DNA from: a virus | Taxonomy: Duplodnaviria; Caudoviricetes | DNA length: 57,565 nucleotides | IMG/VR virus record: IMGVR_UViG_3300045170_000116 | Coordinates: 1-57,565 of that record | Reading direction: 5' to 3' (one strand) | Shown: positions 3,095 to 56,774 of the stretch, piece after piece | Numbering within the stretch: position 1 is the stretch's first letter | How the letters are laid out: every line of letters begins with the position of its first letter | Translations under genes and position numbers: made by a program | Notes under the pieces: generated by a model | Databases searched by the model: none | What the model was told of the DNA's origin: nothing | The model's input: only the letters and a program-made list of their open reading frames with translations

Positions 3095-3211
3095 GCCCGA
3101 ATGCCTGGGGTGGGTCTTGGGGCTCTGGGCATTCACTTGTCTGTCCACACGGCGCCATCACATTCCAGGATGGAGCTGAACACTGCCCTGGCTCTGCCGG
3201 GGCCTTTTTTT
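3095..3211 (+). ncRNA. Putative sRNA 2 (~115 nt)
   Basis: 5' hairpin GAATGCC/GGCATTC, terminator GCCCTGGC/GCCGGGGC+T7. Confidence 0.58.
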
Positions 3212-3230
3212 GGCAGCATTTGAGCTATCG

Positions 3231-3259: not shown

Positions 3260-3340
3260 CCCTGTCGAACGGGCCCGCTCCCCTGGTATTCCGCCAGAGG
3301 GCCCCAGACATTGGCCCCGGAGCATGAACCGGGGCCTTTT
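3260..3340 (+). ncRNA. Putative sRNA 3 (~80 nt)
   Basis: Hairpin GGGCCC..CTGG/CCAG..GGGCCC, terminator GGCCCCGG/CCGGGGCC+T4. Confidence 0.6.
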
Positions 3341-3596
3341 CCTTGCCAATTGACACTTTGCCAGCCCGACCATTTGTCGCCCGAGCGTCTGGTGCGGGGT
3401 GCGGGAGGCCCGCGCGTGTGTGCGGCCATCGCGCTTTGCCGTGATATCGGGAGTCTCACCCGCGAACATCTTTGATTAGTCAAGTTGAAAACTTGATCGA
3501 ACTCGCGAGGGCCTCAACTTAGGATCATTTACTCTTGGAGCCAGAGAATAGTATCCACGCAGCCGGCCCGCAAATCTAGGGATCGGAGACGCCCCC

Positions 3597-3952: not shown

Positions 3953-4052
3953 CGGCTCGCGCACACGCGGGCTGGGGCGTGGAAACCCCGCACAGAGCGG
4001 CCTGGACCGGCCGTATTAAGTCGTCTCTCAATTAGTCGGGGAGGCGCGTTTT
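3953..4052 (+). ncRNA. C4/CI-like antisense RNA
   Basis: TTGCAG-N17-TATGTT promoter, multi-hairpin RNA with GGGCGTGGAAACCC arm, complementary sites at 4060-4113. Confidence 0.55.
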
Positions 4053-4140
4053 GGCGTATGTCCAGGCCGTAAGGCTAAAGGCCCGCGCGAACCCACTCTG
4101 TGCGGTTTTTCCAACTCCCCGACGCGATCGGAGAGCACGC

Positions 4141-4329
4141 ATGCGCATAGCTTTGACCAACCCGCCCAAGATCACCGACGACGGCGACATTTCGATCCCC
4201 GCCTCCGTTGATGGAAAGAACGATCAAATCGAGATGTCCCGCCACGATGCCGAGCAGTTGGCCGAGGCACTGCTTCGGCATTTTGCCAACGATGACAAAA
4301 TCTCGGGCGGATCAAACGGCGCCACGTAG
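4141..4329 (+). CDS. Small hypothetical protein, paralog B
   Basis: ATG after GATCGGAGA; paralog of 3597-3791. Confidence 0.75.
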   Translation: MRIALTNPPKITDDGDISIPASVDGKNDQIEMSRHDAEQLAEALLRHFANDDKISGGSNGAT

Positions 4330-5025
4330 CGGCGGCCCCTTGGCGATGCGCGGCCCGGTGAACTGCTGATACGCACCCCAGCAGCGATGAAACCCCATGT
4401 AGTGAAGGTCGGGGCCGCAGAGATGCACGGTGTCGAAAGGGCGAAGGCTGTCGGCAGGCGCAAAGAACATATCGGCATGGTTGGCTGCCGTGGACTCGAG
4501 TGCGCCATTTAGGCTCGCCTGTGTTCCAACCAGCCCTTGGATGATGATTGGGGCGTCGGCGGCGAGAAGGCCATCCTCCCGAAAGCCCGCTATGGCGCTG
4601 AGGAACCCTGCTTCATATGCCGATGGGTTTGAGCCTAGAAGCGCATCCCCGTTGTTCCAGAGCAGGAAGTCGGCAGGCGGCGCACCCGAGGCCACATAGG
4701 CACTTTTGACCTTGACGTATCGCGAGCCCGACGGCGGCTGCATGTCGGCGATCACCAGTGAACTTTGCGCGACCACCACCAGACGCACGGCCTCCCCGAT
4801 TTCACGCGCGAGACGGTCACAGAACCACGCCGCGGAATTGTTGCCGCCGCTGGCCCGCCAAGGGGCGCTGCCTGCGGCAGGCGATGCAATCCAAGCAGTC
4901 CCATCTGCCCCGCCGTCGTTCACATTGTTCCAGACTTGAACGAGGGGCGAGAGGGTCGCAAGGCTGGGACCGCCCACCCCTTCTCCGGCCATATTTGAAC
5001 CGCCAACGGCAAGCCCGTACTTCAT
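4312..5025 (-). CDS. SGNH/sialate O-acetylesterase (SASA/CE6)-like protein
   Basis: GGSNMAG (GQSN-like) N-terminal motif and DTVH (DxxH) motif; coupled to tail fibre gene. Confidence 0.7.
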   Translation of the reverse strand: MKYGLAVGGSNMAGEGVGGPSLATLSPLVQVWNNVNDGGADGTAWIASPAAGSAPWRASGGNNSAAWFCDRLAREIGEAVRLVVVAQSSLVIADMQPPSGSRYVKVKSAYVASGAPPADFLLWNNGDALLGSNPSAYEAGFLSAIAGFREDGLLAADAPIIIQGLVGTQASLNGALESTAANHADMFFAPADSLRPFDTVHLCGPDLHYMGFHRCWGAYQQFTGPRIAKGPPLRGAV

Positions 5026-6908
5026 CAGAAATTCTCCGAGACTATAGCAAGACCAGGAGCGCCGGCAGCACCATTGCGGTGCGTAGCGTCCGTCGAGACC
5101 GGTCCGCCCGCACCAGAGCCATAACCCTTGCCGGGATAGCCATCTCCGCCGCCAATGGTTCGTCCGCCAGCGCCTAGGCGCGAATTGCCGCCAGCATTTG
5201 CAGAGAAATAGGTCGTGCCGGAGAGCCGGAGGCCGCGTTGCGAATTCTGTCCGGGCACGATCAAATCGCCCACGCCTGTGTCTGCCCCGTCGTTCTGGTT
5301 GGACGAGGTGACAGAAGTGCCCGCGGTGCAGATGCCGGTGACCGTGCCGCCAATTCCCCCCGCGGCTTCGCAATACCCGCCGATGGACGTTGTCCCGCCG
5401 TTTCCACCGGCCGTGGGGGAAGCAGCGCCGACTCCCGCCAACCCGGCCGCACCGATCGTGACGGGACAGGACACGAAGTCGAGCGTGCCGCCGCTGACAT
5501 AGGCGCCGAAGCTCGTCGTATTGACGCCACTGAGTTGGAAGGTGTTCGTGGTTGCGCCGGCAACGGTATAGGTATTTCCGTTCAGGGAGGTCATCCCGAC
5601 GACCCCAGCGATTTTGACAACCGTGCCGTTCTTGAAGCCATGGCCATTGCTGGTCACGACGCCAGGGTTCGCCTGCGAAATGCCGCTGATTGACCTCAGC
5701 GAGAAATCGAGATGCTTGTGGGCCTCGGCGCCAGCCGATCCAGCATTCCCCATGCCGACACTTGCTGCCGCTCCAGAACAACCAGAGCTGCCGCCACCGG
5801 GCCCCTGCGTGACAAGATCGACCGACTTCGCGCCAGGCGTTCGGGTGTAAATTCCGCTGCCGGTGAAATAGAGGGTCCGCGCAGAGCCGATGACGGGGTC
5901 GACGCTGATGACAGGCGACGTGGGAACGGAGAGGTCAATCTGGACGCCGGTGCCGGCGACCAGGTCGAGCGGCTGCGCGTCAGCAGAGATGACGGGGTTG
6001 GCAGGGTCCGTGTTGTCGATGGAGATACCGTCGCCCTCAACCAAGCTAACAATTGTCCCGGCGCCGTCATTGCCCTTTTGCGCCAGCAAGGCCCAATAGG
6101 CATTGCTTGTGGTTGGTAGCGTTGGCGGAGCGTTGCCAGTGGTCGGCTGGAGCGCGATCCAGGATGAGCCGTTTTCGCGGGCAACGTCGCCCTCGGCGTA
6201 TGACGTTACGCCACTGTACGCACCTTTGAACGAGAAGCCCTCGCCGCGGAAGTCGACAGCATCGCCGATGGTGCCGGTCCAGGTGCCGTCCGCCTTGAGG
6301 TACTGCCCGACATTGTCTGTGGGAGGCACCCCCTCACCGCCAACATAGCCCGCCAGCTTTATGACCCTGCGAGCGCCATCGGCTTCGGCCACAAGCTGCG
6401 GCGACCATCCCTTCTGTCCTGTGTCGCCCTTGAACTCGACAGGTCCGATCCATGCGCCATATGCGCCGCTTTGCTTGGCCCAGATCACGCCATCGTCTTT
6501 GACGAGGACGCGATAGCCGGCGCGGAGTGGATTGGCAGGGCTTTCGAGCGCCAGTCGAGATGCATCATCTGCGACGATAATGTCGTACCAAGCCTTCACA
6601 TCGCCAAGCTGCTCAAGAACCTTGCGGCTCTGCGCCGTCGAGCGCTCGATGATGCTCACATAACGAACTTCATAGGACTCTTCAGCGGCAGCGGCGCCGG
6701 GCCATGGATAGGCGAGAACGATCTGGCCGTCTGCGTTGACGCTTTCGACACGCTGGGGAGGCACGAGCGGTTGCGACGGAAGGAAGAACAAGTCGTCGCC
6801 CCAGACGTTGTCAGTCCAAGTTGCGCCGGTTGGTGTGACGACAGTGCCACCGGCAGCGACAGACGCCCTTCCGACCGCATAGCGGCCAGGTAGAAGATTA
6901 TCGGTCAT
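5025..6908 (-). CDS. Tail fibre/receptor-binding protein
   Basis: KGDTGQKG collagen-like stretch, CBM5/12-like YxxGDxVxxxGSSWIAL motif, Gly-rich C-terminus with FCCH-like insert. Confidence 0.8.
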   Translation of the reverse strand: MTDNLLPGRYAVGRASVAAGGTVVTPTGATWTDNVWGDDLFFLPSQPLVPPQRVESVNADGQIVLAYPWPGAAAAEESYEVRYVSIIERSTAQSRKVLEQLGDVKAWYDIIVADDASRLALESPANPLRAGYRVLVKDDGVIWAKQSGAYGAWIGPVEFKGDTGQKGWSPQLVAEADGARRVIKLAGYVGGEGVPPTDNVGQYLKADGTWTGTIGDAVDFRGEGFSFKGAYSGVTSYAEGDVARENGSSWIALQPTTGNAPPTLPTTSNAYWALLAQKGNDGAGTIVSLVEGDGISIDNTDPANPVISADAQPLDLVAGTGVQIDLSVPTSPVISVDPVIGSARTLYFTGSGIYTRTPGAKSVDLVTQGPGGGSSGCSGAAASVGMGNAGSAGAEAHKHLDFSLRSISGISQANPGVVTSNGHGFKNGTVVKIAGVVGMTSLNGNTYTVAGATTNTFQLSGVNTTSFGAYVSGGTLDFVSCPVTIGAAGLAGVGAASPTAGGNGGTTSIGGYCEAAGGIGGTVTGICTAGTSVTSSNQNDGADTGVGDLIVPGQNSQRGLRLSGTTYFSANAGGNSRLGAGGRTIGGGDGYPGKGYGSGAGGPVSTDATHRNGAAGAPGLAIVSENF

Positions 6909-17123: not shown

Positions 17124-17582
17124 ATGAACAAAGATGCAGAAGTCGTTCGTACCAGCCTTCGTTTGCACAAGCCGCTCTATGACCGGCTGTCCGCATCCGC
17201 TGAGGAGCATGGCATGACAATGCATGCCGAAATTTTGGCGAGGCTTGAGGACTCGTTCGCGGCAAATCGAGGAGCGGCGGAGGCTCTGGATCTGGCGCTG
17301 AAAACCCTTGAGCAGCAGAACGCCGAAAGTCGCAGAGTACTTTTGGAAGAGCGCGCAATGCTCTCCCAGGTGAAACTGATGCGTCACCTCCTAGATCAAG
17401 TTGCCCTTTCGCGTGGCGTTCTCGACAAAGATCTCTGGATCACAATCGCAATGCTAAGCGGTCGAGACATAGAAGGCGCCGAGCCTGAAGGCGATCTGGC
17501 AACCCTGTTACAAGCGACAGTTGATGCGATCGACGCAGCCGAAGAGGCAAAAGACGACGCCGCCCCTCCAAAGGGCGACTGA
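17124..17582 (+). CDS. Arc/Mnt-family repressor
   Basis: TSLRLHKPLYDRL..SA....TMHAEILARLE. Confidence 0.82.
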   Translation: MNKDAEVVRTSLRLHKPLYDRLSASAEEHGMTMHAEILARLEDSFAANRGAAEALDLALKTLEQQNAESRRVLLEERAMLSQVKLMRHLLDQVALSRGVLDKDLWITIAMLSGRDIEGAEPEGDLATLLQATVDAIDAAEEAKDDAAPPKGD

Positions 17583-17636
17583 CTCGACTCCCTCAGCCCA
17601 TTTTGCTTTGATCCCCTGGCGAGTTGGGGGGCTCAA

Positions 17637-36353: not shown

Positions 36354-36429
36354 TGGTTGCGGGAGCAGGAATTGAACCTGCGACCTTCGGCTTATGAGAC
36401 CGGCGAGCTACCGCTGCTCCACCAACGCA
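36354..36429 (-). tRNA. tRNA-Met(CAT), initiator-like, degenerate
   Basis: GGTGGAGCAGCGGTAGCTCG..CTCATAA..GCAGGTTCAATTCCTGC..ACCA; mismatches in acceptor and anticodon stems. Confidence 0.75.
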
Positions 36430-40693: not shown

Positions 40694-41257
40694 TCATTGC
40701 TTGCCTCCCCAGAGCATATGGGCCTGCGCATAGGTGCCGGGCCCCCAGACGTACCAGGCGTGATCTTCAGTGCCTGTCTCGCCGTTCCCTGCCCACGAGA
40801 TGCGATCCAGCAAGGCGATCTTCGCCATGAACCGGTGATTGTCCTGGAAGAGGTGACGACGGGTTTTGCCGAAATCGAACTTGGCCGTCAGCAGCAGCGC
40901 GACCATGCCATCGCAGCGCTCGAGCGCCAGTTCGGCGAAGCGCACAGCGTCACGGTTGCCCTTGCCGTATGGAGGGTTGGTGATGATGGCGTCGACCGAT
41001 AGCCGCGGCTCGGACGGGTAGTAGGCGAGAAAGTCTCGAACCATGTCATGCTGCCGATCATATGTCGCAATGTCCGAGGTGAAGACTTCTGCACCGTGCT
41101 CGCGAAGCACATCGGCCACCATGTGATTGCCTGCCGCTGGCTCCAAAACGCGAAGCCCGGCCACCGGGAAATGCCGCAACAGCACTCCCGTCGCCCATGG
41201 CTCGGTCTGGTAAAGGTCATTCGCAGCGCGAGCGAAGTTGGAAGCGGTGACAGTCAT
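40694..41257 (-). CDS. DNA N6-adenine methyltransferase
   Basis: EPAAGN motif I, ITNPPY motif IV. Confidence 0.85.
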   Translation of the reverse strand: MTVTASNFARAANDLYQTEPWATGVLLRHFPVAGLRVLEPAAGNHMVADVLREHGAEVFTSDIATYDRQHDMVRDFLAYYPSEPRLSVDAIITNPPYGKGNRDAVRFAELALERCDGMVALLLTAKFDFGKTRRHLFQDNHRFMAKIALLDRISWAGNGETGTEDHAWYVWGPGTYAQAHMLWGGKQ

Positions 41258-42099
41258 GCTGCTGCCTTCCGCTTCTGCTTGATCTGGTGATCGAGCTTGG
41301 CAATCGTCAGGAGCGCGGGCTTCAGTTCATCCGGCGCGCTGTCGTAGGCCATCACGCGGGTTGCCTTGCCGCCATTCAAGCGAGGCAGCAAGCCGCGAGA
41401 GATCAGCTCCCAGTTCGACGGATCGGTATTGAGCTTGTTGCCGTCGAGGCACTTAAGGCAATGGCCCTTGGGCACTGGACCGTTGAGTTTCTCCCACAGC
41501 CAGACATGCTTGTGCACTGGGCGCGTCTTGGCGCCGGTCCATGGGTTTGTTTCCTCGACGATCATGACGACGTAGCCGTCTTTGCTGTCGATGCGCTCGT
41601 GACCTGGCCCTTTGTAGGTGTGCGAGACGTTGCCCTTCTTGAACTGAGTTTTCCGGGCATTCGGGTGCCGGCCACCAACACCGTCGGCGCATCGTTTGCC
41701 CTTGTTGTGTGAGACGTTGCCCTTGGGGAACTGTCCAGTGCGCCCAGTCTTCCACCCCATACGCTTACGGAGGGCGTGAAGGTTCTGCGGACGGACGTCT
41801 TCGCGCGGGAAGGCCGCAACGAACTCCTGATGATACTCCGCGATAGGCAGCAGGTGGTTGGCTTCAAGCCAGGCCATCTCCGCTGCGCCGAATTTCCGGT
41901 GCCGACCTTTGTATCGGTCGCCTTCCCTGCCAGTCTTCCAACCCTTGCGCTTGCGCAATCCATGCAAGTTCATCGCCGAGACATCATCACGGCCAAACTC
42001 GGCGACGAACGCGGCGTGATAGTCACTGATGACCATCGTGCGGTTGGTTTCCAGCCAGATCATTTCGACGGCGCTGTATTCGATCCGGCTGCGCTTCAT
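41254..42099 (-). CDS. HNH endonuclease family protein
   Basis: QFKKG repeats, H..LWE...GPVP..DGNKLN..SN. Confidence 0.85.
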   Translation of the reverse strand: MKRSRIEYSAVEMIWLETNRTMVISDYHAAFVAEFGRDDVSAMNLHGLRKRKGWKTGREGDRYKGRHRKFGAAEMAWLEANHLLPIAEYHQEFVAAFPREDVRPQNLHALRKRMGWKTGRTGQFPKGNVSHNKGKRCADGVGGRHPNARKTQFKKGNVSHTYKGPGHERIDSKDGYVVMIVEETNPWTGAKTRPVHKHVWLWEKLNGPVPKGHCLKCLDGNKLNTDPSNWELISRGLLPRLNGGKATRVMAYDSAPDELKPALLTIAKLDHQIKQKRKAAA

Positions 42100-44268: not shown

Positions 44269-44586
44269 TCACGCCGTCTCGCTCGTGGTGAGGCGGTAGC
44301 CGACGCCGCGAACGTTCTCGATGCCGAAGCCGAAGGGCCGAAGCTTGTTGCGGCTGACGCAGACATGCCGGCGAATGATGTTGTCGGCACAGTCAGGCCC
44401 ACCGTTGGGATCAAGACCCCAGATCACGGTCCAGATAGCCTGAATGGTGACGGCTCTGCCTTTGCCCTTGGCAACGGCCAGGAATAGCTGGCGCTCACTC
44501 GGGCTGAGCTTTGCGCGATAAGCCGCGTTCTCGATGCCGTCGATGATCGGCTGGCCGCAGCAATCGCAGACCTTCTGGGCGCTCAT
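44269..44586 (-). CDS. Winged-helix (OmpR C-terminal-like) protein
   Basis: CDCCG, LSPSE..LF, R.KL....IENVRGVGYRL. Confidence 0.8.
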   Translation of the reverse strand: MSAQKVCDCCGQPIIDGIENAAYRAKLSPSERQLFLAVAKGKGRAVTIQAIWTVIWGLDPNGGPDCADNIIRRHVCVSRNKLRPFGFGIENVRGVGYRLTTSETA

Positions 44587-44708
44587 GGTGCCGCCCCAAT
44601 CAGGAACAGTACGTGCGCAGCGACAGCCAAGAGGATGAGCCCATAAATCGTGGGCCAGATCACCTTTGACGGTTCAAGGCGAGGGCCGGAGTTGCGTGCC
44701 CTGCTCAT
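44583..44708 (-). CDS. 41-aa single-TM peptide
   Basis: ATGA overlaps at both ends; [22 protein letters not shown]. Confidence 0.55.
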
Positions 44709-45448
44709 GCCGACACCAGGCCATCGCCGGCCATTTTCAGGCAGGAATTGCAGTGAGCCTTCCCACCAGACGAACGGCAGGCTTCAGGGCTCTGGCACAA
44801 GGGGCGCAGCTTCTTGACGCCCTCGGCTCGCGAAAGAACGTTGGATGCCGGAGCTGGGGTCGAACCAGCGTTGACGGCGTCAAAGGCCGCTGTCCTGCCA
44901 TTAGACGATCCGGCATTGTCCTGAAGGGGCTCGACATTGTCGACGCCCCTGCCCTCGCTTGCATCTGCCGAGAGAGTTTCGTTCGCCGTTTCCGGCTGAA
45001 TAGGTTGACGTTCTTCGATGCCCTCCACAACGTCAGGAGAGGGAGTGACGGTCGCTGTAACGACCCGCATCTGCGCAGGCTGAGGGGCAACCTGCGGTTG
45101 GGTAATAGGTTCGGAAACAGCCTCGACGCGACCAGCAAAGAGCGGCGCAGAATGGCCGGCGGAGCCGCGGCGCAAAGTGCGATTCATTGCCTCTTCGTGC
45201 GAGGTCTGCATATCGAGCGCGGTCATGTAGAGCTCGAGCAGAGCTTCCTGCTCCATGCGCTCGTTGGCGTCCTGCTTGCGGATCGTCACAATCTTCCGCA
45301 GGATTTTCGTGTCGAAGCCGTTGCCCTTGGCTTCGGCGTAGATTTCCTTGATGTCAGCCGCGATGGCGGCTTTCTCTTCCTCCATTCTCTCGATGCGTTC
45401 GATGAAGGCGCGGAGCTGGTCCTGGGCGACGGAATCTTCAACGGCCAT
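44705..45448 (-). CDS. gapR: GapR/DUF2312 protein with long C-terminal extension and Cys4 motif
   Basis: [45 protein letters not shown]. Confidence 0.88.
44842..44915 (-). tRNA. tRNA-Gln(TTG) nested within the GapR CDS
   Basis: TGCCGGA-TC-GTC TAATGGCAG GAC-A-GCGGC CTTTGAC GCCGT-CAAC-GCTGG TTCGACC CCAGC-TCCGGCA-T-CCA, 74 nt. Confidence 0.85.
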
Positions 45449-45676
45449 TTAAGCCTCCACCATCTTGCAGCCGGCGGCCGCGTTGAACTTGAGACGACAG
45501 GCACGAGCTTGGTCAGGAGTGCCGGACCATGCGTGTTCGGGATTGTCGGTGAGGAAGCCGCCGGACCAATGGAGGTATTGGACCCCTGCCCTAAGCCGGA
45601 CCTTGGCGGCAGAAGCGCGAAGATCAGACAAGCTGGGTGGATGATGCTTGGGGTGGGCTTCGATGCGCGAGGTCAT
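45449..45676 (-). CDS. Hypothetical protein
   Basis: Coupled to cro; YLHWSG..AWSGT. Confidence 0.65.
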   Translation of the reverse strand: MTSRIEAHPKHHPPSLSDLRASAAKVRLRAGVQYLHWSGGFLTDNPEHAWSGTPDQARACRLKFNAAAGCKMVEA

Positions 45677-45915
45677 GCTGCGGCTCCTCCCTGCTGGCGC
45701 GGCAGGAAATCCTCTGCACGCACTTTCAGTTTTCGCGCGGCCGCCGCCGCCATCAGCTTGGGAATATGCCAATGAGGAACAGCGCCGCCGGTGCCGCCCT
45801 TCTCTTTGACCTGACGCCACCGCCGGACTTGCCCAGGCGAGGCCTCAACGATGGCCGCGACCACTTCGGGGCCGCCGAATTTCTTGATGATGGATGTAGC
45901 GGGTTCGCACTTCAT
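45673..45915 (-). CDS. cro: Cro-like repressor
   Basis: IIKKFGG..VA.....V.RW...GG.VP..H, divergent from cI. Confidence 0.85.
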   Translation of the reverse strand: MKCEPATSIIKKFGGPEVVAAIVEASPGQVRRWRQVKEKGGTGGAVPHWHIPKLMAAAAARKLKVRAEDFLPRQQGGAAA

Positions 45916-45923
45916 GGCCCTAG

Positions 45924-46010
45924 CTATGCGCTTTTCGCACAGTCAGTCAAGTGCTATGCAAGCGATAATCGCACAGGACGTTTAGAACACTCCTATGCGA
46001 AATAATCACA
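45924..46010. promoter_or_regulatory. cI/cro operators
   Basis: CTATGCGCTTTTCGCACA, AGCGATAATCGCACA, CTATGCGAAATAATCACA. Confidence 0.7.
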
Positions 46011-46696
46011 TGTCCGAAGATCCGATCCTTCAGTGGGTAATTGAGAACCTTGCGAAGCCCGGCCGTTCCCAGAGCGAGCTGGCGCGGCGCCTCGGCGTGC
46101 ATCCTTCTGCGATCAACAAGCTGGTGAACGGGAAGCGCGGCCTAAAGTCGAGCGAGATCCCGATCGCCGCAGACTACTTCGGCGAAGAGCCGCCAGCTGG
46201 TGACGTCAGAGCAGCGCCTTCCGTCGGGCTGCTGCCGATCAAGGTCAACGGCAAGCTGGCCGCCGGCGTGTTCCGCGAGGTCGATGACTTCGACCAGTCG
46301 GACGCAGAGCGCGTGTACGAGCCGCCCGACGAGCGCTTCCCCAACGCACGCCGCATGGCTTTCGACGTCGAGGGCGATTCCATGAACGCGCTCGAGCCTC
46401 GTCCCATCATGTCCGGCGACCGCCTCATTTGTGTTTCGTTCGAGGACGTCGCCAGCCAGGTCCGGGTGAAGGACGGGTTGGTCGTCGTGGTCGAGCGCAC
46501 GAGAGATGGCGGCCACACGCGGGAATGGTCGGTGAAGCAGGTCGAACTCTATGAGGATCGGACTGAGTTTCACCCTCGATCGACCAACCGCACGCACAAG
46601 CCGATCGTCATCAAGCGCGATGCCCAGGCCGACGATGGCGTGAGCGTCGAGATCATTGCGTTGGTCCGCTCTGTCAGGAATGACCTGCCGCTCTAA
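46010..46696 (+). CDS. cI: CI repressor (HTH + S24 peptidase)
   Basis: SQSELARRLGV HTH, AAG cleavage site, VEGDSMN and SVK catalytic motifs. Confidence 0.92.
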   Translation: MSEDPILQWVIENLAKPGRSQSELARRLGVHPSAINKLVNGKRGLKSSEIPIAADYFGEEPPAGDVRAAPSVGLLPIKVNGKLAAGVFREVDDFDQSDAERVYEPPDERFPNARRMAFDVEGDSMNALEPRPIMSGDRLICVSFEDVASQVRVKDGLVVVVERTRDGGHTREWSVKQVELYEDRTEFHPRSTNRTHKPIVIKRDAQADDGVSVEIIALVRSVRNDLPL

Positions 46697-55119: not shown

Positions 55120-55332
55120 ATGACAAAAGCGGCAGTCTTCACGCAAGGTGACATTTCGAAGCTTCTGAAGGGCGCCAAGGCCGCAGGAATGTCGGTGAAA
55201 CGCGTCGTGATCGATCGATCCGGCAGGATAGTTGCAGACTTCGGCGGCACGGAAGAGGATGCCCAGCCGGCCAATGAATGGGATGTTGTGTTCAATGCCG
55301 AAGAAAAGCGGCCTACCAAAGGGCGTCACTGA
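55120..55332 (+). CDS. Excisionase-like protein
   Basis: FTQ.DI...LKGA..AG..V..V.ID..G.I ...NEWD, overlaps integrase start. Confidence 0.75.
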   Translation: MTKAAVFTQGDISKLLKGAKAAGMSVKRVVIDRSGRIVADFGGTEEDAQPANEWDVVFNAEEKRPTKGRH

Positions 55333-56350
55333 GTTTCAGGACCGACACGGCGCCTGGCACCTTCGCTATCGCGCCAAGGGGAAGGCCACCCACTATTTCA
55401 GGACAAGGCCGGGCCAGCCCGGATGGCTGGAGGAGCTGGCACAAGCCAGGGACGGCGCCGTTGACGCCCCCAAGGTGCGGACGAACCTGCGGACCAAACC
55501 TGGCTCGATATCGGCGCTGATCGCGGTCTACTACGGCACCCCAGAATTCACGGGCCTCGCCGCAAGTTCACAGAAGACCTATCGCAATATGCTCGAGCGC
55601 TTTCGGGAGGCCCACGGCGACAAACAAGTCGCCACCCTCACCCGCGCTCACATCAAGGCGATTATCGGCGGGATGCACGAGACGCCGGCCGCAGCCAACA
55701 ATCTGCTCGACCGATTGCGGGTGTTGATGAAGATCGCCATGGATGACGACTGGCGCCCCGATGACCCGACATATCGGGTACGCGGATTCAAGCTCAAGGG
55801 CGACGGCTTTCACACATGGTCGGAAGACGACATCGCCACGTTCTGTGAGCACTATCCCATCGGCACAAGCGCACGCCTAGCCATGGGCCTGATGCTCTAT
55901 ACCGGTCAGCGCCGCTCCGACATGGTCAAGATGGGATGGCAGCATTTGGCGGGCAATCGTGTGCGCGTCCATCAGCTCAAGACTGACGAGATGCTGTCGA
56001 TCCCGGTGCATCCGGAATTGGCGACTATCCTGGCTGCCGCCGAGCGGTCTGATTTTCCGATTCTGCTCACGCAGTTCGGGAAGCCGTTCACGGCCAATGG
56101 TTTTGGGAATCGGATGAGAAAGTGGTGCACGGCGGCCAAGTTGCCCGACTGCACGTCTCACGGCCTCCGGAAGGCCGCGGCTCGCCGAATGGCTGAAGCC
56201 GGGTGCACCAACAAAGAAATTATGGCCATCACCGGCCATAAGACCGATCGCGAGGTCACTCGGTACACGAAAGCTGCCGATCAGATTCGGCTCGCTGACA
56301 GGGCAATGGAAGCCCTTGAGAGATCAGAGGAAGAACGCAAGAGTGGCTAA
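55295..56350 (+). CDS. int: Tyrosine integrase
   Basis: TGQRRSD, HGLRK, TGH, Y catalytic residues. Confidence 0.95.
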   Translation: MPKKSGLPKGVTEFQDRHGAWHLRYRAKGKATHYFRTRPGQPGWLEELAQARDGAVDAPKVRTNLRTKPGSISALIAVYYGTPEFTGLAASSQKTYRNMLERFREAHGDKQVATLTRAHIKAIIGGMHETPAAANNLLDRLRVLMKIAMDDDWRPDDPTYRVRGFKLKGDGFHTWSEDDIATFCEHYPIGTSARLAMGLMLYTGQRRSDMVKMGWQHLAGNRVRVHQLKTDEMLSIPVHPELATILAAAERSDFPILLTQFGKPFTANGFGNRMRKWCTAAKLPDCTSHGLRKAAARRMAEAGCTNKEIMAITGHKTDREVTRYTKAADQIRLADRAMEALERSEEERKSG

Positions 56351-56415: not shown

Positions 56416-56500
56416 TGGTGGAGGGGACTGGATTCGAACCAGTGTACGCTAAGCGGTCAGATTTACAGTCTGATGGATTTAACCACTCTCCCACCCCTCC
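56416..56500 (-). tRNA. tRNA-Tyr(GTA), probable attB
   Basis: 85-nt cloverleaf with long variable arm, CTGTAAA loop, CCA end facing integrase. Confidence 0.97.
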
Positions 56501-56700: not shown

Positions 56701-56774
56701 GCGGGTATAGCTCAATGGTAGAGCAGCAGCCTTCCAAGCTGAATACGCGGGTTCGATTCCCGCTACCCGCTCCA
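56701..56774 (+). tRNA. tRNA-Gly(TCC)
   Basis: GCGGGTA..CTTCCAA..GGTTCGATTCC..TACCCGC-T-CCA. Confidence 0.97.

Follow-up and report, generated by a model that had tools for sequence, protein, structure and literature searches.

The question raised by this locus is whether a single piece of phage DNA can serve at once as a tRNA gene and as codons of a protein. The window, meaning the whole stretch of DNA analysed, is IMG/VR record IMGVR_UViG_3300045170_000116 (57,565 nucleotides; nt below), a provirus rated complete with Devosia as its host. Within it, a tRNA-Gln(UUG) is located in frame and on the same strand inside an open reading frame (ORF) in which the GapR domain is fused to a C-terminal four-cysteine (4-Cys) domain (Table 1). 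An earlier reading made from the letters of the DNA (the sequence-only reading) had regarded this as a complete tRNA gene in dual-coding DNA, and both claims held. It was concluded that the locus likely represents a functional, exchangeable phage tRNA-Gln cassette that is tolerated in the translated linker of an early Devosia prophage gene.

The assignment of the tRNA is supported by the following data. The segment at 44842-44915 (minus strand) was called as tRNA-Gln(ttg) by ARAGORN and scored 57.5 bits against RF00005 of Rfam (E = 7.9e-10; gathering score, 29), with standard pairing at 21 of 21 stem pairs in the Rfam alignment. It has U33, a purine at position 37, a 7-nt anticodon loop, a UUCGA T-loop, a G18/G19-type D-loop, and an encoded CCA. 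Its score falls between the extremes for a Devosiaceae genome, in which 46 tRNAs span 50.8 to 80.7 bits. Its identity to the tRNA-Gln genes of one Devosiaceae genome was 48/76 and 52/74, and a similar tRNA-Gln was not found in two complete Devosia genomes (best E, 0.1). Having no close host match, it was therefore deduced to be a phage tRNA rather than a host copy. The remark of the sequence-only reading that U73 is atypical proved correct, as the discriminator was G73 or A73 in 28 chromosomal-type tRNA-Gln genes of the order, and U73 was also unlike both tRNA-Gln genes of one Devosiaceae genome. A promoter-like site whose last base is also the first of the tRNA was rejected since it matched at only 9 of 12 positions and was misplaced for a tRNA start.

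For the carrier gene, the frame was found to run through the tRNA to the C-x5-C-x8-C-x2-C motif without a stop over 247 codons, and its TGA (44705-44707) shares ATGA with the ATG of the next ORF (44583-44708, minus strand), both as had been read from the sequence. Residues 8-79 matched GapR_DNA-bd (Pfam PF10073) over profile positions 1-72 of 72 (E = 6.7e-34), and the N-terminal 80 amino acids (aa) were 98% identical to gapR copies across many Devosia genomes. The prophage GapR domain (45212-45448) has 94-98% protein identity to gapR of many Devosia species (L084-L162), and on these identities the phage copy looks as if it arose from the host gene recently or has been homogenised with it. In the AlphaFold2 (AF2) model, helices were predicted for aa 3-96 at a predicted local distance difference test (pLDDT) score of 76-97, residues 101-200 including the tRNA-coded peptide had a pLDDT of 42-50, and the Cys domain had a pLDDT of 67-75. 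By this prediction, the tRNA sits in the disordered linker of a real two-domain protein. The tRNA is read as 24 residues rich in Gly, Ser, Ala, Pro, and Thr, a composition that suits a linker.

The claim that the extension is a real part of the coding sequence was supported by homology. Short GapR genes are present in many alphaproteobacterial phages, and 448 GapR homologues of 135-433 aa were found among 5.8 billion clustered proteins. In an alignment of 27 proteins the linker was highly variable, and 18 of the 27 had the 4-Cys motif after GapR in one frame, most of them without the tRNA peptide; the Cys domain was likewise fused to GapR in a close relative lacking the tRNA (L083, below). Thus, by homology, the protein continues past the tRNA; its ending earlier was the outcome that the sequence-only reading had named as fatal to its view. 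No in-frame ATG or GTG was present between the tRNA and the first Cys, and a search for stand-alone homologues of the tail (24-77 aa) returned only the 31-aa gene call of this sequence's own lineage, the tail having been called by the gene caller as a separate 31-aa product on 50 contigs of that lineage. The 167 stop-free codons past the GapR domain have a chance of occurrence of ~0.01 at 59-63% GC, as estimated from base composition. Ordinary tRNAs in GC-rich DNA were also observed in stop-free frames of 40 to >400 codons on each side (L258, L269, L277, L298, L308, L198, L082). An open frame through a tRNA is thus common in high-GC DNA, and the case for translation is therefore made from homology and not from the frame alone.

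Selection on the cloverleaf was deduced from stem covariation among homologues, which the sequence-only reading had proposed to look for and which was found. Among 11 peptides from the GapR context, 231 of 231 stem cells can pair, leaving none incompatible, while 42-67 of 231 were unable to pair when the partner was slid; two compensatory changes were forced, G-C to A-T and C-G to G-C. At the DNA level, 97.8% of cells were paired across 11 nested tRNA-Gln sequences, and both partners had changed in 16 of the 21 pairs. This pairing was reached by 0 of 500 shuffles, and slid controls gave 25-53%. The segment from U33 to A37, including the UUG anticodon, and the CCA were invariant in all 11, and the T-loop and D-loop positions were invariant or almost so. 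For nested tRNA-Met, 99.2% of cells were paired and 9 of 21 pairs were compensatory.

The arrangement was not the single oddity that it had seemed to be, as it recurred with several tRNA identities in at least two unrelated genes. Recurrent in-frame tRNAs among gapR genes, for which the sequence-only reading had suggested an alignment as a check, were found in both DNA and proteins. A search of 243 Devosiaceae genomes with the 91-nt tRNA region gave a match in one, at L253, whose 440-aa GapR fusion holds in frame a tRNA with 99% identity over 75 nt. The GapR domain of L253 has 66% nucleotide identity to that of the gene studied, and beyond it only a 28-nt island and the tRNA align; the identity island at the tRNA consists of the tRNA plus 1 nt, with unalignable flanks. 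In L102, a tRNA-Arg(UCU) at 4634-4709 (60.9 bits) is in frame within ORF 4001-5116, directly before a C-terminal domain of ~135 aa, and L293 has this same domain at 93% identity without a tRNA. The open frame after the tRNA runs 141 codons (L253) and 135 codons (L102) into the conserved domain. L083, which is 99% identical to the window over 44817-44405 and 88% identical in gapR, lacks the tRNA; an unrelated 244 nt replace the 160-nt tRNA segment, the ORF still runs from GapR to the Cys domain, and the Cys-motif DNA is 99% identical. All tRNAs found at the DNA level in Devosia-type gapR fusions (L253, L102, and the gene at 44705-45448) were in frame. The tRNA-Gln peptide was also present in 9 of 120 long GapR proteins listed, in two architectures, with the tRNA followed by either the Cys domain or the unrelated ~135-aa domain; the tRNAs of P0001, P0006-P0010, P0031, P0083, and P0106 are known from peptides alone.

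In the wider order, the 91-nt tRNA region matched 40 of 401 genomes, and 30 loci were read. All but L253 (29/30) were non-nested tRNA-Gln genes of 76-88% identity with a GapR neighbour in 0 of 29; 28 were of the chromosomal type (G73 or A73), and one, L263, had U73 and lay in a phage-like tRNA cluster. The L263 gene (1502-1575) is a free-standing tRNA-Gln(UUG) with a UGCC-GA acceptor in a cluster beside an RNA-ligase-like ORF, and the cluster possibly belongs to another phage. The best 150 of 288 GapR matches by Pfam in the 243 genomes were chromosomal. No nested tRNA was present in 80 IMG/VR gapR loci, and the exact 23-nt D-arm pattern returned only two unrelated phage tRNA arrays from IMG/VR. 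In the near-identical low-GC viral contigs L077 and L078, a tRNA-Trp(cca) (3147-3221 and 3277-3351, respectively) lies 40 nt past the stop of an 88-aa gapR and is not nested.

A parallel case was found in a gene unrelated to GapR. A metagenome scan with the tRNA-peptide alignment gave 80 loci, with tRNA-Gln(UUG) in 80/80 and GapR in 0/80. The open stretch in the frame used by the gapR fusion had a median of 50 codons and reached at least 247 codons in 5 loci, and two of these 5 (GC 0.36-0.38) were an 810-aa ORF. Both tRNA-Gln and tRNA-Met are in frame in this ORF, at aa 302-362, between an NrS-1-type primase-polymerase helix-bundle domain on the upstream side and a helicase-like part on the downstream side. 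In this family, the primase-helicase ORF of ~800 aa (GC 0.36-0.42) has tRNA-Gln(UUG) and tRNA-Met(CAU) between its halves. Among 10 IMG/VR relatives (49-97% protein identity), both tRNAs were in frame in 7 and neither was present in 3; the order was swapped to Met then Gln in L285 and L288, and L287, L289, and L291 had no tRNA. The spacers between the two tRNAs were 29, 5, and 2 nt (Gln-Met) and 1 and 25 nt (Met-Gln), and all five keep the sole workable frame. Cultured relatives (e.g., Pseudomonas phage Ab26) had no tRNA, and PSV3, where the gene is split among other ORFs, also had none. Between L245 and L283 the flanks were 96-97% identical and the tRNAs 88-91%, while between L283 and L284 the tRNA-Met was 100% identical and the flanks 86% and 71%. 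This mismatch of tRNAs and flanks, together with the comparisons of L083 and L253 with the gene at 44705-45448, indicates that nested tRNAs are swapped, gained, or lost as units.

Taken together, the likely explanation is a double use of one 74-nt segment, which would serve both as a tRNA and as a spacer of 24 residues. Transcripts that are translated by ribosomes would give the full-length fusion protein. Where the cloverleaf folds first, it would be cut by host RNase P and the 3' processing enzymes to release the tRNA, and that copy of the mRNA would be finished for the fusion, with a stop-less 5' piece and a start-less 3' piece. Output of tRNA and of full-length protein would thus compete, with ribosome occupancy probably deciding. 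The cassette is present, absent, or replaced by another tRNA among close relatives, and a linker tolerates a stop-free insert that preserves the frame. U1-A72 is the GatCAB determinant of bacterial tRNA-Gln, a point made in the sequence-only reading that fits this host: this pair is common to the nested tRNA-Gln and the host-type tRNA-Gln genes, and in three Devosia-family genomes GlnRS (glnS) exceeded the cut-off in 0/3 and GatB in 3/3. The released tRNA would presumably be charged by a non-discriminating GluRS and GatCAB. Its most likely use is the supply of CAA decoding, because the CAA share of Gln codons was 0.225 (112/498) in prophage ORFs and 0.134 (352/2633) in Devosia loci, or ~1.7-fold that of the GC-rich host. 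AGA, read by the tRNA-Arg(UCU) of L102, was roughly twice as frequent in the prophage.

As for expression, six metatranscriptome runs contain part of the 44705-45448 region. Contigs of four of the runs had a depth of 2-5 and covered most of the region, and a contig at 44704-44947 spans the whole tRNA, which fits either an unprocessed transcript or DNA.

Several points weigh against the cassette explanation. The RNA data are low-depth assemblies that may include DNA, and they inform on presence only and not on ends or strand; the mature tRNA, the RNase P cut, aminoacylation, a switch between full-length and truncated GapR, and a role against anticodon nucleases are proposed only. The case for translation across the tRNA is one of homology, and at least 40 open codons on both sides were found in 38 of 273 tRNAs (320 sources), including ordinary chromosomal ones. 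The single-sequence fold of the nested tRNA-Gln was weak (-29.2 kcal/mol; z, -1.85), being equalled by 11 of 200 shuffles. U73 differs from the host tRNA-Gln genes, and charging is assumed. The sequences for covariation were picked via ARAGORN tRNA calls, which favours pairing, and the structure string was the Rfam alignment of the 44842-44915 tRNA itself. The codon comparison was made from crude ORF sets with differing filters on third-position GC (GC3), and the proportion of 9/120 is not an unbiased rate as a search of long proteins sees in-frame cases only.

The same data were weighed for other explanations. The cloverleaf might be no more than a target for RNase P and RNase Z that punctuates the early transcript, setting the ratio of full-length to truncated GapR and uncoupling the downstream genes, with no decoding. 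It follows by sequence logic that any excision from a nested position cuts the mRNA, and such a role would also be consistent with the ATGA coupling of the next gene and with the differing identities at the same spot (Gln at 44842-44915 and in L253, Arg in L102). The end of a contig at 44922 in two runs, 7 nt upstream of the 5' end of the tRNA, is a weak hint in the same direction; these breaks, along with gaps in coverage, were rejected as evidence for processing. A mere cleavage signal would not need an anticodon, loops, or CCA, whereas the anticodon was invariant in 11/11 nested tRNA-Gln and 8/8 nested tRNA-Met, the T-loop, D-loop, and CCA were kept, and the isoacceptors read A-ending codons that are commoner in the prophage than in the host. 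This role was deemed unlikely. That the insert is a fossil, i.e., captured tRNA or tRNA-derived DNA that provides spacer codons and yields no tRNA, was deemed very unlikely. The linkers do accept nearly any stop-free sequence, of the 33 tRNAs in a Devosiaceae genome 29 have at least one stop-free frame, so that nesting needs little adaptation, and P0008 is altered at conserved T-loop and acceptor sites (A58 to U and C68 to U, as deduced from the peptide). A fossil is nevertheless hard to reconcile with a tRNA-sized island of 99% identity between otherwise unalignable genes, with compensatory stem changes and an invariant anticodon across lineages of 49-97% protein identity, and with an Rfam score as high as those of cellular tRNAs.

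An attP or module-exchange site, with the tRNA copy serving recombination, would account for the same tRNA-Gln before two C-terminal domains, the same C-terminal domain after two tRNAs, the junctions at the tRNA edges, and the exchange of the primase-family cassettes independently of their flanks. However, the gene is intact in the provirus, the sole integrase found (55232-56350) is beside tRNA-Tyr and tRNA-Gly, the tRNA is full length rather than a 3' half, its identity to the tRNA-Gln genes of one Devosiaceae genome was 48/76 and 52/74, and a similar tRNA-Gln was absent from the 2 complete Devosia genomes and from 242 of 243 Devosiaceae genomes. Such a site was judged highly improbable as an alternative, while a role of the tRNA as an anchor for homologous recombination is compatible with the cassette explanation and could operate alongside it. 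It is scarcely credible that the finding is an artefact of annotation, in which GapR ends before the tRNA and the downstream frame is chance read-through in GC-rich DNA. Chromosomal tRNAs at GC 0.62-0.67 do lie in similarly long stop-free frames (L258, L269, L277, L298, and L308), and the 31-aa tail product was called separately on the 50 contigs. On the other side stand the low estimated chance of 167 stop-free codons, the in-frame fusion of the Cys domain in relatives lacking the tRNA, the lack of an in-frame ATG or GTG before the first Cys, and the frames of L253 and L102 that stay open into a conserved domain; the low-GC primase family excludes chance altogether.

A wider proposal may be drawn from the cassette explanation: that nested tRNAs are a general and overlooked organisation of phage genes, in which mobile cassettes in the linkers of early or replication proteins set RNase P against translation. 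This generalisation is doubtful at present, as is its corollary that phages tie the supply of tRNA both to how much full-length and truncated protein is made and to how the operon downstream is expressed. If true, pipelines that bar overlap of coding sequences with tRNAs would have kept the phenomenon, and the proteins that bear tRNAs, out of sight.

The arrangement was compared with known systems. Phage tRNA genes are intergenic, occur singly or in arrays, and are thought to compensate for codon usage or to replace tRNAs destroyed by defence systems. The nested tRNA is like these in being canonical and in reading an A-ending codon, CAA, that is commoner in the prophage than in its GC-rich host; the intergenic tRNA-Met at 36354-36429 is an ordinary phage tRNA in the same window. 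It is unlike them in that a coding sequence of the same strand encloses it wholly and in frame, with a conserved domain encoded before it and another after it, so that its bases double as codons and its excision must cut the mRNA. Cotranscription of tRNA with mRNA, or punctuation by tRNA, is known from the Escherichia coli tufB operon, the phage T4 tRNA cluster, mitochondria, and the t-elements of plant mitochondria. There, as here, a tRNA fold in a longer transcript would be a target of RNase P and 3' enzymes that separates the flanking RNA. In those systems, however, the tRNA is between or at the ends of coding regions and not inside one frame, and only here are processing and the full-length protein mutually exclusive for each molecule.

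An attP inside phage or virus genes is known from SSV1-type partition of the integrase, from intP of Mx8, and from the integration-dependent immunity of mycobacteriophages. The likeness lies in having tRNA-related sequence in or beside phage genes; those systems have a partial tRNA core by the integrase and a gene that is split, whereas here a full tRNA lies ~10 kb away in an intact gene. In PMC10865867, phage tRNAs are tied to lysogeny and their isotype matches that of the disrupted attB tRNA. The att-side tRNAs here are Tyr and Gly and the nested tRNA is Gln, which differs from the tRNA-dependent lysogeny set out there. Neither a core by the integrase, nor a split carrier gene, nor a core identical to a host tRNA was found for the nested tRNA.

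Inteins are selfish in-frame inserts in phage genes, and SgrS/SgrT and RNAIII/hld are RNAs that also encode peptides. The tRNA insert resembles inteins in being in frame, in its presence/absence polymorphism among close relatives, and in its location in replication or early genes; it differs in lacking protein splicing and an endonuclease, the 74-nt insert remaining as a spacer. As with SgrS/SgrT and RNAIII/hld, RNA and protein come from one locus, but here a housekeeping-type tRNA is paired with a large multidomain protein. The carrier resembles the nucleoid-associated GapR (DUF2312/UPF0335) proteins of alphaproteobacteria and the homologues in their phages over the N-terminal 80 aa (PF10073). 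Unlike short GapR, it is a long fusion with a disordered linker, in effect a landing pad for the tRNA, and a C-terminal 4-Cys or ~135-aa domain. Full-text literature searches, seen as listings and the starts of abstracts, gave no account of a tRNA gene lying in frame within a phage ORF. The locus is best classed as a familiar kind of gene in a new arrangement, and the comparative evidence for its function is good.

Should the nested tRNAs be produced, this would be natural DNA selected simultaneously as tRNA and as codons, and each transcript would yield either a tRNA or a full-length protein and never both. It would provide a testable model for the competition of translation and RNA processing in bacteria, and phages would have a new way of carrying tRNAs that spares intergenic space and translational coupling. 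For annotation it is a warning that masking of tRNAs before gene calling truncates real proteins, as for the 31-aa tail. Exchangeable RNA cassettes appear to use the linkers of multidomain phage proteins as landing sites, which bears on the origin of phage mosaicism and on domain shuffling.

Table 1. Coordinates of the tRNA, its carrier gene, the surrounding prophage features, and related ORFs (positions are those of the window unless preceded by a locus name)
Feature	Position	Strand	Basis
gapR-fusion ORF, 247 aa: GapR domain, tRNA-holding linker, 4-Cys domain	44705..45448	-	No stop; Pfam; homologues
GapR DNA-binding domain, aa 8-79	45212..45427	-	Pfam PF10073; AF2 helices
Predicted disordered linker, ~aa 97-203, holding the tRNA	44840..45160	-	AF2 pLDDT; alignment variability
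tRNA-Gln(UUG), 74 nt, U1-A72, U73, encoded CCA	44842..44915	-	ARAGORN; Rfam; L253 island; covariation
Conserved linker island, peptide PIQPETANE, GAAA-tetraloop hairpin possible	44978..45005	-	17-28 nt at 95-100% identity
C-x5-C-x8-C-x2-C motif, aa 218-236, C-terminal domain	44741..44797	-	Translation; homologues; AF2
Next gene, 41 aa, start overlapping the gapR stop as ATGA	44583..44708	-	ORF coordinates
Cro-like gene, head of the same leftward early operon	45673..45915	-	Weak P22_Cro, E 7.8e-4, below cut-off
cI/LexA-type repressor, divergent from the early operon	45995..46696	+	Pfam HTH_3 and Peptidase_S24
Tyrosine integrase at the prophage end	55232..56350	+	Pfam Phage_integrase, E 1.3e-21
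tRNA-bearing primase-helicase ORFs	L245:3104-5533, L202, L283-L286, L288, L290, L292		

The gapR fusion belongs to a leftward early operon, downstream of the Cro-like gene, with terminase and portal further left. At the prophage end, the integrase adjoins tRNA-Tyr(gta) (56416-56500), tRNA-Gly(tcc) (56701-56774), and a host SpoU methylase gene, and both of these att-side tRNAs score as intact. The gapR fusion is unsplit in the integrated provirus, and the integrase and att-side tRNAs are ~10 kb off; it follows that this prophage did not integrate through the nested tRNA as its attP.

Within otherwise unalignable linkers, the PIQPETANE island recurs at L253:1205-1232, L293:2273-2295, L108:4475-4497, L016:3379-3400, and L083:4517-4533, and its hairpin has a minimum free energy of -8.0 kcal/mol. 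It may be an element acting at the DNA or RNA level or an anchor for recombination. Other peptides recur in the variable linkers (P0001-P0044, L083, and L253), namely VTGGESAAT, EPQPTKAAGQ, and ITEQQVAPQPASDLT, and these may mark further conserved nucleotide islands. No second RNA was detected by Rfam at permissive E-values in the linker at 44840-45160 or in L083, L103, L105, and L108, and VTGGESAAT is therefore not recognisable as tRNA-coded. In P0006 (aa 173-192) and P0009 (aa 153-172), the tRNA-Gln peptide is closely preceded by the peptide EAQKVERRSPKPEDAGSIPA. Among 33 translated tRNAs of a Devosiaceae genome it aligned best to tRNA-Trp(CCA), with a score of 62 against 54 for the next tRNA, and its blastp-short match to tRNA-Trp fell short of E 1e-3. 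From these alignments, a second nested tRNA, tRNA-Trp, in P0006 and P0009 would be a lead only.

Elsewhere in the window, the intergenic tRNA-Met(cat) (minus strand) scored 45.2 bits, has two non-standard acceptor pairs, and is covered by no minus-strand ORF of at least 40 aa. An HNH endonuclease gene (41254-42099, minus strand) lies ~2.7 kb downstream of the gapR fusion in the same operon, and a tie to cassette mobility would be pure speculation. At 17511-17608 (minus strand), ARAGORN called a 98-nt tRNA-Pro(tgg) that is absent from the Rfam hits at the gathering score, and this is likely either spurious or a tRNA that carries an insert.

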